Positions 41,961 through 46,320 of a DNA stretch of 64,000 nt are shown here, piece by piece (the stretch's first letter is position 1; the number at the start of each line of letters is the position of its first letter). The DNA is from Cyanobacteriota bacterium (GTDB taxonomy: Bacteria > Cyanobacteriota > Cyanobacteriia > Cyanobacteriales > Nostocaceae): contig JBJOKS010000001.1 of the NCBI GenBank assembly GCA_046045965.1, forward strand, positions 128,001 to 192,000. The letters run 5' to 3'. A program made the translations under genes and the position numbers. The notes under the pieces were generated by a model, which did not search any database, was not told where the DNA came from, and was given only the letters and a program-made list of their open reading frames with translations.

Positions 41961-42066
41961 CTTGATTTTTGCTTGGGAATTTGGGATTTTTATTCATTGT
42001 AAAAATATCTTGTGAAATATTTGCATTTTTTGGGTTTTTGTTTTATTATTGAAATTCATGGCACCT

Positions 42067-42153
42067 GGAGAGGTGGCCGAGTGGTTGAAGGCGCAGACCT
42101 GGAAAGTCTGTTATGCAGAAATGTATACGAGGGTTCGAATCCCTCCCTCTCCG
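42067..42153 (+). tRNA. tRNA-Ser(GGA)
   Basis: GGAGAGG/CCTCTCC acceptor stem; CAGAC-CTGGAAA-GTCTG anticodon arm; long variable arm; GGTTCGAATCC T-loop. Confidence 0.96.
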
Positions 42154-42182
42154 TTTATAAAGCAAATTTGAATATTTAAGTT

Positions 42183-42359: not shown

Positions 42360-42743
42360 ATGTCGGACACATCCAATTTTCAAATTACCATTGCTTTCAC
42401 TGATACAGACTTAGACAACGAAGACAAAAATCAGGAAGTGCAGAAGCTACTGAGTCAAATGCAGAAGCTAGATGAAATAGAAGACGTTAACCGCGTTCTT
42501 GACCCCAACCCCCCGGAGGGAAACAAAGCTGGAGGAGGTTTTTTACCCGGACTACTAACAGCACAAGTTAACCCAGCCAACTTTTTGAAATTATTTGGAT
42601 TTTTGGCAGAACGTTTGGGTAACAAACCGATTAAACTCAATGTTAAAGCCCCAGATGGTCGGGAAATAAACGTCGAAGCCAGCAGTAAAGAAGAATTTGA
42701 ATTTGCTTGGCAAAAAGCACAAGATTTTATTAATAACAAATAA
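42360..42743 (+). CDS. Small protein resembling EACC1 (effector-associated constant component)
   Basis: Acidic helix, PPEGNKAG, hydrophobic segment, then IKLNVKAPDGREINVEA; 9 bp upstream of a caspase gene. Confidence 0.65.
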   Translation: MSDTSNFQITIAFTDTDLDNEDKNQEVQKLLSQMQKLDEIEDVNRVLDPNPPEGNKAGGGFLPGLLTAQVNPANFLKLFGFLAERLGNKPIKLNVKAPDGREINVEASSKEEFEFAWQKAQDFINNK

Positions 42744-42752
42744 GGCTGGACA

Positions 42753-44525
42753 ATGGCGAGAATTGCACTATTGATAGGAGTAAGTGAATATGAACCAGGC
42801 TTAAATCGACTGGCTGGGGCTGTAAAAGATGTGGACGCAATGCGGCGAGTTTTACAGCATCCAGAAATGGGTGGTTTTGCTGAGAGTGAAATTATAGTCA
42901 TGCAAAATCCCCAACGACAGGATATGGAAAATGCTATTGAAAAGCTTTTTGCTAACCGTCAGAAAGATGATTTATTGTTGCTTTATTTCTCCGGTCATGG
43001 AATTACAGATGATAGTGGGAGGTTATATCTAACTAATAGCCAAACTCACAAATATGACAATGGTAATTTAGTTATAACTAGTGCTACTTCTGCCAGTTTA
43101 ATACATCAATTTATGGACAATGGGCATTGTAAGTCTAAACGACAGGTGATTATTCTTGACTGTTGTTATAGCGGAGCTTTTGCGGAAGGGATGAAAGTAA
43201 AAGATGGTGGTAGTGTAGATATTAATAAGCAATTAGGAGGAAAAGGTAGGGCAGTTTTGACTTCTTCCTCTTGTGGCGAATATTCTTTTGAACAAAGAGG
43301 AGAAGAATTATCAGTTTATACCCGTTACATTGTTGAAGGTATTGAAACTGGTGCGGCTGATACTGACAACGATGGTATGATTTCTGTGGACGAATTACAT
43401 GAATATGCCTTCAAAAAAGTGCAGGAAGCAGCACCAGCAATGAGTCCAAAAATTTATGCTGTGGAAGAAGGTTATAAAATTAAGGTAGCAAATGCACCTG
43501 TTGGTAATCCCAAATTAAAATATCGCAAGGAAGTAGAAAAATATTTACGAGATGGTAAAATTTCAACTATTGGTAATCGAATTTTAAAACGTTATCAAAA
43601 TGAATTGGGTTTATCAGATGATGAAGTTAAGGAAATACAGGATGAAGTTTTAGAACCTATTCGTAGATATCAAGCTAATTTGAAAGAGTATGAAGAAGCT
43701 TTGCGAGAAGCTTTGGAAGATGAAACAAGTCTTAGCCAAGAGACACAAAATGAGTTAAAACACTTTCAGCAAGTTTTACAACTTAGAGATGAGGATGTAG
43801 AACCTATTCACGATAGGTTAATTTTGTCTTCAAATCATCCCTCAGAACAAACAATCATTGCACCTCCTCAAACTACTCAACCTTTAGAACTGCTTAACTC
43901 ATATCTTGGTTCTCAACCAAACATTTCAGCAGTTGAGGCTGGAGAGATTATTAAGTCAGGTCAAAATATACAAGCTCCTACTCAAACAGATGACCTGTCA
44001 TCAGAAAGAGGCATAGACTACACCACACTGCGCGACTTACTAGCAGCACAAAAATGGCAGGAAGCAGATACAGAAACCTACGAAGTAATGATTAAAGCTG
44101 TAGGTAAAAAGTCTGGGGACTGGTTTACAAGTGATGAATTATTAAATTTCCCATGTAAAGACCTCCGCACAATTGACCAATTGTGGGTAAAATACAGTAA
44201 TGGACGATTTGGGTTTAGCGTCCAAAAGGAAATTTACTTGAGTGTTGGTGGTAAGCCTGATGGCGAGTATGACTCAGTTGCCTGGGTTAGATTTGCTAAA
44301 AAAGTAGGATGGAAAAACGAAGAAGATAAATGGATAGAAAAGGTAAAATTTTATACCTCAGCCCCGAAAGGACACTTACCTGTAAGTTTGGATTGGAGAT
44401 TAAGTTGGATAGAGGATGAATGGGAAGGATTAGAAGGATTGAGTTGGGAGTTATGGGAAGTATGGATGAGTTGGGTGGTTGGTTTCTCTTCTCTCGCATC
44501 GAGACTTGTAAACTGTAACATCTAA
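42753..44525 (+). CDS. Caspase-like (C14) peptidase + helical linker + C-terminal GUN4 domain
   Basis: ALLIGV; YFSGHG and ILDCCYSG catalytic dyad; GUN4 motifs DYTTLRDLL..WQEAD.ET, IDQLWVKYSNGRFGFSVQ and PKGHLP. Confidence 0.92.
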   Translation: MARIALLIGVSEYEPGLNRLAGAVKDVDAMRRVLQHPEMGGFAESEIIVMQNPQRQDMENAIEKLFANRQKDDLLLLYFSGHGITDDSGRLYLTNSQTHKYDNGNLVITSATSASLIHQFMDNGHCKSKRQVIILDCCYSGAFAEGMKVKDGGSVDINKQLGGKGRAVLTSSSCGEYSFEQRGEELSVYTRYIVEGIETGAADTDNDGMISVDELHEYAFKKVQEAAPAMSPKIYAVEEGYKIKVANAPVGNPKLKYRKEVEKYLRDGKISTIGNRILKRYQNELGLSDDEVKEIQDEVLEPIRRYQANLKEYEEALREALEDETSLSQETQNELKHFQQVLQLRDEDVEPIHDRLILSSNHPSEQTIIAPPQTTQPLELLNSYLGSQPNISAVEAGEIIKSGQNIQAPTQTDDLSSERGIDYTTLRDLLAAQKWQEADTETYEVMIKAVGKKSGDWFTSDELLNFPCKDLRTIDQLWVKYSNGRFGFSVQKEIYLSVGGKPDGEYDSVAWVRFAKKVGWKNEEDKWIEKVKFYTSAPKGHLPVSLDWRLSWIEDEWEGLEGLSWELWEVWMSWVVGFSSLASRLVNCNI

Positions 44526-44558
44526 GGCTTTCAGAAATCTGTAAATATTTATTACAAC

Positions 44559-45314
44559 CTACTTTCCCACGGAAGAATCAACATTTGCGAATTTCGTTAC
44601 CTGGCACGGCGGGGTTATCTCCTGCACCTCCGTACTTTCTGTTACCCTCTGCTTATCCCAAGGTAAACTCATCTGTCCTGGTGACTTCTTGCTTTTACCG
44701 CTTTTCTTCATCGACGGTAAAAACCGACTTCCCCAATAGTTTCTTTTTTCTGGTTTGGCCTTTGGTTTATACTTCTTGCAAAACCGCCGATATTTAGCTG
44801 CACATTCTTCCAGAGTCCTCCCCAATTGCAAAAATGCCGGATGCCATTGAGTGATACCATCATTACTCAAGCGGTCATGAGTACCATAATTACTAAAATC
44901 ATAAAAAAAGCCTTGTTGTATTCCTGCTGCTTTCGGGTTAGCGTGGATATAGCGTAAAGTATTTAAGGCACGACGATAATCTGTATTTTCAAACCCTGTA
45001 CTGTGGTATCGCTTTTCCCAAAAATGACCTGTACGGTTCAGCATCCGATTAAAACACATAGCAGTGTACCAGTTTAACCAGTGCATAACTTTTGGTAATT
45101 CTTCTGGCTGTTTTGGTTCTAGGAGATAATGAACATGATTACTCATAATGCACAGTGCATAGAGTTTAAAACCATACTTTTGTTGTGCTTTTTTAATCGC
45201 ATAAAGAAAAACTTCACGACATTCTAACCGTGTAAGTCGAAATTCGCGGTTATTGCAACGGGTAGTGATGTGATAACAGAAACCTGGTTGAAAATTGCGT
45301 TTTGGACGAGACAT
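44559..45314 (-). CDS. RAYT-type (REP-associated) HUH/Y1 tyrosine transposase
   Basis: YHITTRCNNRE, HUH motif MSNHVH, FWEKRYHS and catalytic YIHANP; probable start MSRPKR. Confidence 0.9.
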   Translation of the reverse strand: MSRPKRNFQPGFCYHITTRCNNREFRLTRLECREVFLYAIKKAQQKYGFKLYALCIMSNHVHYLLEPKQPEELPKVMHWLNWYTAMCFNRMLNRTGHFWEKRYHSTGFENTDYRRALNTLRYIHANPKAAGIQQGFFYDFSNYGTHDRLSNDGITQWHPAFLQLGRTLEECAAKYRRFCKKYKPKAKPEKRNYWGSRFLPSMKKSGKSKKSPGQMSLPWDKQRVTESTEVQEITPPCQVTKFANVDSSVGK

Positions 45315-45327
45315 GGAGATAACAATT

Positions 45328-45483
45328 TTAGGCAAATAATTCACCACCAGCAGACCGGGGTATGATATGCTCAAATTCAAAAGTTGTAACTGTTAAATAT
45401 TCAGCAGTACGACAGTAAGCACAACAATCTGAAAAACAATGACGAATTTTTGTTTGTAATTCAACAGAAATATAAACACTCAC
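45328..45483 (-). pseudogene. Truncated HNH endonuclease (51 aa)
   Basis: Manual translation MSVYISVELQTKIRHCFSDCCAYCRTAEYLTVTTFEFEHIIPRSAGGELFA*; has CxxC and EHIIPxxxGG but lacks the NL..CxxCN half; GTGA overlap with the upstream gene. Confidence 0.85.
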
Positions 45484-45821
45484 GCTACTCTAGATTTGTT
45501 TTGAAGTTGGTTTAATGTATATCTTGCTCTAGTTTTAAGAATATTCAATTGATCAATCTGTGCTATTAATCTTTCTAAAGTTTCACTTTCTTCATTTGAC
45601 AATTGATTCTCAGAATTTTTCATTAATAACTCATCTAATCGAATCTGACTTTTAAGAGACAAAGAAGTTTCTGCTAAAGCTTGCAACTCATCCAAACTTA
45701 AACCAATCAATAATTCAGTATCTGCTGATAAATTGGTTAGCTGTTGGTAAGTTTCCAGATTTAACAATACACCAACTTTTTCTCCCTGGGTATTAGTTAT
45801 ATACTGCACTGATTCAGACAT
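45480..45821 (-). CDS. Small antitoxin-like protein translationally coupled to the HNH remnant
   Basis: QYITNTQGEKVGVLL N-terminus; RLDELL..QLSNEE helical domain. Confidence 0.7.
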   Translation of the reverse strand: MSESVQYITNTQGEKVGVLLNLETYQQLTNLSADTELLIGLSLDELQALAETSLSLKSQIRLDELLMKNSENQLSNEESETLERLIAQIDQLNILKTRARYTLNQLQNKSRVA

Positions 45822-45930: not shown

Positions 45931-46320
45931 ATGAGTAACCAAATCACAATTACTCTACCAGATGACGTTTACCAAAAAGCTGAACACTTCGCACGTTTAG
46001 CAAACCGTGATTTAGCCAGCGTCTTAATTGAGACTATCCAATTATCCATCCCACCTGTTAGCCAAGAAGCAGCAACCCTTGAACCTGTATCAACACTTTC
46101 TGAGCAGCAAGTTTTAGCTTTGACAGAATTACAAATGAAATCTGAAGAAGATAGCCGTTTGAGTGAATTGCTAGACAGACAACAAGCTGGTATTCTCACA
46201 GATTTAGAACATTCTGAATTACAAGCACTCATGCAAATTTACCAAGAAGGTTTATTGCGAAAAGCTACTGCATTGAGTGAAGCTGTAAAACGTGGGTTAA
46301 TTAAAAAGTTAGATGAGTGA
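45931..46320 (+). CDS. Small antitoxin-like protein (RHH-like N-terminus + helical domain)
   Basis: ITITLPDDVYQKAE N-terminus; RLSELLDRQQAGILT similar to 45480-45821. Confidence 0.75.
   Translation: MSNQITITLPDDVYQKAEHFARLANRDLASVLIETIQLSIPPVSQEAATLEPVSTLSEQQVLALTELQMKSEEDSRLSELLDRQQAGILTDLEHSELQALMQIYQEGLLRKATALSEAVKRGLIKKLDE

Follow-up and report, generated by a model that had tools for sequence, protein, structure and literature searches.

The Locus

The window, as the whole stretch of DNA analyzed here is called (64,000 nucleotides from a cyanobacterium of the Nostocaceae), contains a two-gene unit whose second gene, encoding a caspase with a C-terminal GUN4-like domain, is faced tail to tail by a gene for a Y1/HUH nuclease. 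The features discussed below are, by position in the window:

42066..42154, + strand: tRNA-Ser(GGA), found with ARAGORN, directly upstream of the two-gene unit
42360..42743, + strand: 127-aa ORF at the place where the EACC1 partner of the caspase would sit (EACC1 membership is a lead only)
42753..44525, + strand: caspase-GUN4 target gene, 590 aa, EACC1-type, with the GUN4-like domain C-terminal (PF00656, aa 3-224; PF05419, aa 417-555; NF047832 above cut-off)
44370..44380, + strand: 5' flank coding GHLP, a soft boundary that is eroded at some nuclease-linked loci
44381..44484, + strand: variable G/T-rich insert in place of the canonical GUN4 LxNxLR bilin-binding loop (the C-free run extends to 44485)
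44485..44525, + strand: fixed 3' end, beginning TC-TCTTCTCTCGC, which reads SSLASRL, LLSxRDL or LFSRVET by frame
44526..44607, + strand: conserved spacer ending in the box TACCTGGCAC (44598-44607)
44559..45314, - strand: Y1/HUH nuclease gene of the TnpA-REP subclass 2.1 type (PF01797), facing the cassette
44658-44678, - strand: clamp-type motif GQMSLPW of the nuclease
44934-44951, - strand: nuclease motif YIHANP
45129-45140, - strand: nuclease motif NHVH (HUH)

The 127-aa ORF has no match in Pfam and NCBIfam scans; a feature match of 0.91 to an atlas cluster that is 21% EACC1 provides a weak lead, and its homologs are present at 11 cassette loci. The boundary formed by the GHLP-coding flank is probably held by selection on the protein. 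The opposite end contains one TAA per frame (at 44509, 44516 and 44523) and supplies a helix and a stop in any frame, and all three frames are in use among the paralogs of this genome and in relatives. The TCTTCTCTCGC motif starts at 44487, 111 nt from the box, and the box is kept even where the nuclease stop lies beyond it; the box is thus a feature of the DNA.

A preliminary description, made from the sequence alone, had singled out 44381-44485 as a C-free tract. These 105 nt (A28, G43, T34) are indeed the longest such run on the + strand of the window, and the quasi-repeats (AGTTGG three times, ATGGGAAG and GAAGGATT twice each) and the encoded peptide are as claimed. The probability of 1e-8 to 1e-9 given for the run assumes independent bases and overstates the case, since the genome has 303 runs of at least 50 nt that lack C and 313 that lack G, six of which exceed 105 nt; the tract is nonetheless exceptional in its own family, being the longest C-free run of 142 inserts, nine of which have no C at all, and this comparison is the stronger evidence. 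The 13-nt hairpin at 44492-44504 exists as described but does not look like a key signal: it is perfect in 19 of the 46 nuclease-anchored loci in which the motif was found among 51 examined (a count that includes two parsing slips and one locus counted twice), and three segments of the 3' block show no excess stability over shuffles (z -0.15 to 0.62).

Is the tract an artifact of a low-quality assembly? No difference from it is found in contigs from three other studies, of which X3 spans the entire tract (44283-44492) and X4 and X5 span parts (44284-44441 and 44299-44467); thus, the tract is real. The contigs of four runs, X2-X5, do not support the variation expected at this locus, being identical wherever they cover the tract; because rare variants are lost from contigs and the remainder of the gene is equally invariant, they are no measure of rate. 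Loose contig ends at 44485-44487 include sequences identical to paralogs from the same genome.

A Cassette with a Free-Length Insert

The tract is one copy of a cassette in which a G/T-rich insert, free in length, lies between a flank that codes for GHLP and the fixed end with stops in three frames. There are 14 GUN4 matches in the genome; in most of them, unrelated G/T-rich sequence (44-106 nt; n = 11) separates the GHLP-coding flank from a common 3' DNA motif. A cassette query matched 32 of 41 genomes (31 of 40 relatives), and a scan with the 3' motif found at least 121 loci; among the matches listed, 80 titles are all cyanobacterial, and 100 inserts could be parsed at sites with a recognizable 5' flank, ranging from 31 to 155 nt, with length classes modulo 3 of 24/33/43 and with no positional consensus except in the last two bases. 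The sharply bounded loop, variable in length and sequence between conserved flanks, that the preliminary description had proposed is therefore borne out in paralogs and relatives. A metagenome scan for near-identical orthologs of the unit returned one locus only, none of three other genomes of the genus has a close copy of it, and a plasmid search returned 12 distant records. At two further loci in G000, the setting differs: at C9 ~159330-159510 (L032, L201), a flank, insert and 3' end stand as an orphan with no preceding GUN4 domain match, and at C86:404-2815 (L034), a kinase carries three GUN4 domains in tandem, every one of which has an insert, and the internal domains read through the 3' motif.

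The bias of the inserts, as had been supposed, lies at the DNA level. Among 142 distinct inserts (from 143 units), composition is alike at all codon positions, and four-fold sites are G.40, T.31, A.18 and C.105, as compared with G.16 and C.27 in the core. In-frame stops have been purged, with 10 in 3062 codons versus 167 in 3017 and 149 in 2959 in the other frames. Internal repeats of at least 15 nt occur in 9/142 inserts (control mean 0.4, maximum 2), 5'-flank 9-mers inside 8/142 (a count without a control), and homo-dinucleotides show a 1.2-1.4 fold excess. The inserts are overdispersed in their C content (chi2 534, df 141), and nine of the 142 are C/A-rich, as if inverted.

The Insert Occupies a Ligand Loop

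A model of the GUN4-like domain, confident in the core and the final helix and uncertain in the insert, matches GUN4 structures with a Z of 20.7 and an rmsd of 1.9 Å over 142 aligned residues. Canonical GUN4 (PDB 7E2T, 4XKB, 1Y6I) has the same fold, and its GHLP is kept in the window domain; however, in canonical GUN4 GHLP is followed by LxNxLR, which includes Asn211 and is described in the available text of PMC10156173 as the bilin motif of the Synechocystis protein, whereas in the window gene LxNxLR is not present after GHLP and the insert stands there instead. The alignment to Synechocystis GUN4 stops at residue 210, directly before Asn211, and the canonical GUN4 of the same genome (the C8 gene) has LxNxLR exactly where the insert starts; thus, the insert occupies the ligand loop. 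This position, together with fusions of GUN4-like domains to caspase, kinase and TIR, argues for a sensing role (in line with the accessible part of PMC7159879) and suggests that these domains form a variable sensor class beside the DGR-varied lectins; in the window, the domain would serve as a receptor for the caspase system. A literature search that covered few subscription journals and no supplements found no paper describing a variable tip of GUN4, and GUN4 appears in the available portion of PMC7517822 only as one of the further domains that C-type lectin (CLec) target proteins have. The loops that precede GHLP in the GUN4-like domain (~44250-44370 in the window) also differ between close homologs.

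Wholesale Replacement Followed by Stasis

Close copies reveal how inserts change. L246 and L256 lie in tandem in one single-contig genome, with nuclease genes that are 99.8% identical and near-identical GUN4 cores, yet their inserts are unrelated; L102 and L110 share both flanks at 97% identity and have unrelated inserts, as do four loci with 96-97% identical upstream DNA, and the insert of the window is completely different from that of L043 (96.3%). A G/T-biased insert of free length is, therefore, swapped wholesale between fixed flanks in a GUN4-like ligand loop, which is hard to explain by ordinary mutation. On the other hand, in nine of ten protein clusters the tails differ by point changes only, although the definition of the clusters (90% identity, drawn from the homolog list) itself favors similar tails. 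The picture is one of rare, complete rewriting and then stasis, rather than of continuous change. Between L246 and L256, a small patch upstream of GHLP has also been replaced in otherwise near-identical DNA.

The Facing Nuclease

The enzyme encoded opposite the cassette has the NHVH, W[EQ] and Y-x-x-x-NP motifs, the Y1 fold and the C-terminal extension of TnpA-REP/RAYT subclass 2.1, a placement made by the motif table in the available text of PMC6006769 and by fold match, the closest structure being E. coli TnpA-REP (4ER8); it scores 64.6 against NF047646, under the cut-off of 80. In the window, the catalytic motifs are intact and a 31-nt deletion at ~44613/44614 frameshifts the tail, with loss of an invariant F-x-x-A-N C-terminal helix; at this locus the insert looks frozen. 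Next to the box, the window (44608-44620), L168 and L237 show a cluster of indels and tandem duplications, which possibly marks a second cut site. Directly upstream of the nuclease gene are two small divergent ORFs (45480-45821 and 45931-46320) with no NCBIfam match, the first of which resembles an ORF at four other cassette loci.

Two other identities were considered. A mobile IS200/IS605 element is not indicated: the family has one copy here and one to four in other genomes, and NF033573 is far under its cut-off. Neither is a REPtron, which would be flanked by GTAG-tagged REP hairpins present many times in the genome: the box TACCTGGCAC occurs only twice and the 3' 11-mer seven times in the genome, and the 3' block has no stable hairpin.

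How closely are nuclease and cassette tied? When 980 ORFs from L003-L117 were clustered, the Y1 HUH nuclease was the commonest cassette-neighbor family (28 loci). In relatives, 15 of 23 nuclease loci face GUN4 and the motif, as do all nine full-length copies at 84% identity or above. Viewed from the cassette, the nuclease gene or its 3' remnant is found at 22 of 82 assessable motif sites, always convergent, and the other 60 have none within 1.5 kb; it is present in 16 of 41 genomes versus 32 for the cassette, so that roughly every second genome with a cassette shows no nuclease. Across the order, a search detected the nuclease in 53 of 301 genomes. Of these matches, 70 of 74 were classified together with two loci from the search of relatives (three contig-start loci were left out and one tandem copy was handled apart); 7 of the resulting 72 were unassessable, and the remaining 65 face GUN4 in 40 cases, a cyanobactin precursor in 11 (including L259), a GG-leader-like ORF in four and another gene in ten, the last with nothing recognizably variable. 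By chance, a GUN4 end would be faced with a probability of ~0.0008; the counts include relatives that have the arrangement in common and are therefore not independent.

The Y1 family thus stands tail to tail with cassettes, and a second branch of it does so with the genes for cyanobactin precursors (L211, L212, L259, L262, L268, L269, L270, L273, L277, L282, L284), nine of ten scanned precursors passing NCBIfam cut-offs. In a quick, midpoint-rooted tree, which gives no order of events, the RiPP-linked nucleases group together as one branch (SH-aLRT 99). Their loci mostly keep the box TACCTGGCAC, at 143-155 nt from the constant end versus 111 nt for GUN4, and their cores lean to G (.34) and T (.31), in a small sample of nine that is also shaped by peptide chemistry. 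The branches differ in a clamp-type motif, Q-x-S-L-P-W, found in 34 of 39 GUN4-linked and 0 of 8 RiPP-linked nucleases, which is similar to the clamp motif Q-L-S-L-F in the available text of PMC3971601. A model of the clamp of this genome with the tail of the intact L043 nuclease places the motif in the clamp pocket (score 0.67; best control 0.00; agreement of contacts between runs 72% or more, partner pLDDT 46 or more); among solved pairs, 116 of 157 reach the mark used, and among mismatched pairs, 2 of 215. The result may stem from the memory of the predictor for solved clamp-peptide complexes.

How Could the Inserts Be Rewritten?

The product and its linkage to the nuclease are shown. The best candidate for the engine of insert replacement is the facing TnpA-REP-type nuclease, and the tract is probably the current filling of a targeted cassette that works without a reverse transcriptase (RT), in which the nuclease would nick, a polymerase would extend the end with little templating and the ends would be rejoined. 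The process can be pictured as follows. The nuclease, probably loaded via the sliding clamp, would recognize the 3' block or the box on single-stranded DNA and nick near the TC/TCTTCTC junction; the free 3'-OH would be extended by a polymerase largely without a template, making the coding strand G/T-rich and the other C/A-rich, and occasional slips back would copy the flanks; the extended end would be rejoined by microhomology; and selection would retain open, folding variants, helped by the three-frame end. Such events would be rare or episodic, not continuous. HUH enzymes cut and join DNA, and none is known to synthesize it. By eye, no polymerase was found among the 45 most frequent neighbor families (980 ORFs, L003-L117), and a Y-family polymerase is absent from G000 and present in one of 20 nuclease-positive genomes. 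In its full form, the proposal has a domesticated HUH nuclease that binds the clamp and, at a defined junction, sets off a programmed synthesis of G/T-rich DNA that is largely untemplated; it would write new loops into GUN4-type immune sensors without an RT, and its sister branch would write the hypervariable cyanobactin cores. This reading is somewhat less likely than not. The diversifying loop of the preliminary description is supported in part, and the three-frame end, the conserved box and the facing nuclease gene were absent from it.

Could the cassette be passive instead? The nuclease gene might hitch-hike or only spread the cassette, while host slippage and break repair in G/T-rich DNA, under strong diversifying selection, changes the inserts and the three-frame end merely tolerates frameshifts. 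The many motif sites that lack a nuclease, the stable tails of most clusters, the tandem duplications inside inserts and near the box and the excess of homo-dinucleotides would all fit. However, slippage should leave alignable, repetitive variants, yet copies with 99.8% identical neighbors are unrelated and most inserts have no long repeat; nor would it explain why one enzyme family faces two unrelated hypervariable gene classes, each at its own fixed spacing. We regard this explanation as unlikely. Less probable still is capture, in which the nuclease or host recombination pastes in short DNA from outside donors (phage, degraded DNA, silent copies): in its favor are the joining of ssDNA by HUH enzymes, the overdispersed C content, the seemingly inverted inserts and the 92% completeness of the assembly. 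Against this, no donor was found in the genome for any of 11 inserts, matches elsewhere being 13-18 nt, just as in resampled controls; the strong, oriented G/T bias is unlike genome composition; and the 3' motif (the motif, not the inserts, being the query) has 0 exact matches in viral contigs.

Variable C-terminal regions on caspase, kinase and NACHT sensors are also what cyanobacterial DGR targets have, and RT genes, unlinked to the cassette, occur in nine of ten nuclease-positive genomes tested; both points favor a remote DGR or other RT whose template is missing from the assembly. The preliminary description had already set the tract apart from adenine-specific DGR targets, and rightly: a genome-wide ungapped scan of the 92% complete assembly with three tract segments, in which each base in turn was allowed to vary, returned nothing beyond the locus itself and the 3' ends of paralogs, and no template with A-only or other single-base mismatches, and instead of near-constant length with fixed shared positions the inserts span 31-155 nt. 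The single RVT_1 match of the genome is retron-like and lies on another contig, G013 (99% complete, with an intact module) has no RT match, and there is no RT among the most frequent cassette-neighbor families. A remote RT is thus largely refuted and very improbable. Erosion of an ordinary loop by strand-specific deamination (C>T, A>G) of DNA exposed as a single strand would give the observed composition, with G and T high and C and A low; close pairs, however, differ in length and are unrelated rather than transition-separated, which contradicts deamination as the sole cause, together with the strand-specific C loss raised in the preliminary description. It may add to the bias and is scarcely credible as its source. 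A retron-type RT at L001:1297-2430, whose best matches are Ec67/TIR retron models (under cut-offs), is followed by a 335-aa ORF and probably belongs to an unrelated defense system.

Relation to Known Systems

The closest relative of the proposed nuclease-driven system is the TnpA-REP (RAYT group 1/subclass 2.1) that faces procA, for which a preprint proposes diversification, then withdraws the causal claim, its authors seeing no strong evidence for or against causation (bioRxiv 10.1101/2020.03.09.984088; also pointed to in the available text of PMC10783134). Comparing the prochlorosin enzymes by description, the two share the subclass, the tail-to-tail arrangement with a hypervariable gene, a conserved spacing and spacer, C-terminal remnants beside duplicated targets and diversity focused on a short 3' coding segment; in both, the enzyme is a putative cause of the variation. 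They differ in their targets, which here are cyanobactin precursors and the sensor loops of GUN4-like domains, in another cyanobacterial group, whereas the preprint calls the association unique to marine picocyanobacteria and reports small indels, its main text containing no whole-insert replacement, oriented G/T bias, three-frame end or clamp motif. The present system is best seen as a variant of this proposed, unproven kind of diversifier, with a fair chance of being a new mechanism. Cyanobacterial DGR targets with CLec domains likewise place a variable C-terminal binding region on caspase, kinase and signaling/conflict proteins, as dispersed paralogs (available parts of PMC7517822, PMC7159879); the cassette, in contrast, has no RT, template repeat or adenine specificity, its length is free, and its fold is GUN4, not CLec. 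The two-gene conflict systems with an EACC1-type caspase share that caspase, a variable C-terminal domain and, in position, a small upstream partner, but their variation is described as domain swapping, and the accessible portion of PMC7159879 describes neither rewriting within a domain nor a nuclease partner.

Few targeted diversifiers are known in bacteria, and one that is started by a nuclease and is apparently template-free would, if true, be a new mechanism, giving bacteria antibody-like protein variation without an RT. In V(D)J junctional diversity, too, a transposase-derived nuclease and N-additions by TdT produce a free-length, seemingly untemplated insert in a binding loop, subject to frame selection; the likeness is an analogy only, as the enzymes are unrelated and the cassette has no segment joining and can use all three frames. 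DNA rich in G and T has few stops and encodes much Gly, Val, Leu, Trp and Phe, so such a system might be of use for making peptide libraries in vivo. The available text of PMC6006769 reports no REP-like target for the RAYT enzymes of group 1; the 3' block and the box present a concrete candidate substrate for them.

The nuclease is also a candidate for how hypervariable cyanobactin cores arise; a transposase between the cyanobactin precursor and F genes has been noted and is given no role in the accessible text of PMC4663559 and PMC6162287. At L270, where precursors lie in tandem, the 3' remnant of a nuclease gene and the box come after every one of them. At eight loci (L211, L227, L228, L229, L240, L252, L264, L280), contigs stop 56-335 nt past the nuclease tail, at about the position of the variable region, which may reflect within-sample variation or just repeated 3' blocks. 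At L261, L265, L275 and L278, the nuclease faces short ORFs, with no family match in an NCBIfam scan, that have what we take to be a GG-type leader end; the cores at L265 and L261 are C/A-rich and His/Thr-rich, a mirror of the bias of GUN4 inserts. L248/L288, L257 and L260 make up a separate small nuclease branch, and the L248 nuclease faces an ORF with a G-rich linker and then a presumably PEP-CTERM-like end, possibly a further target class.
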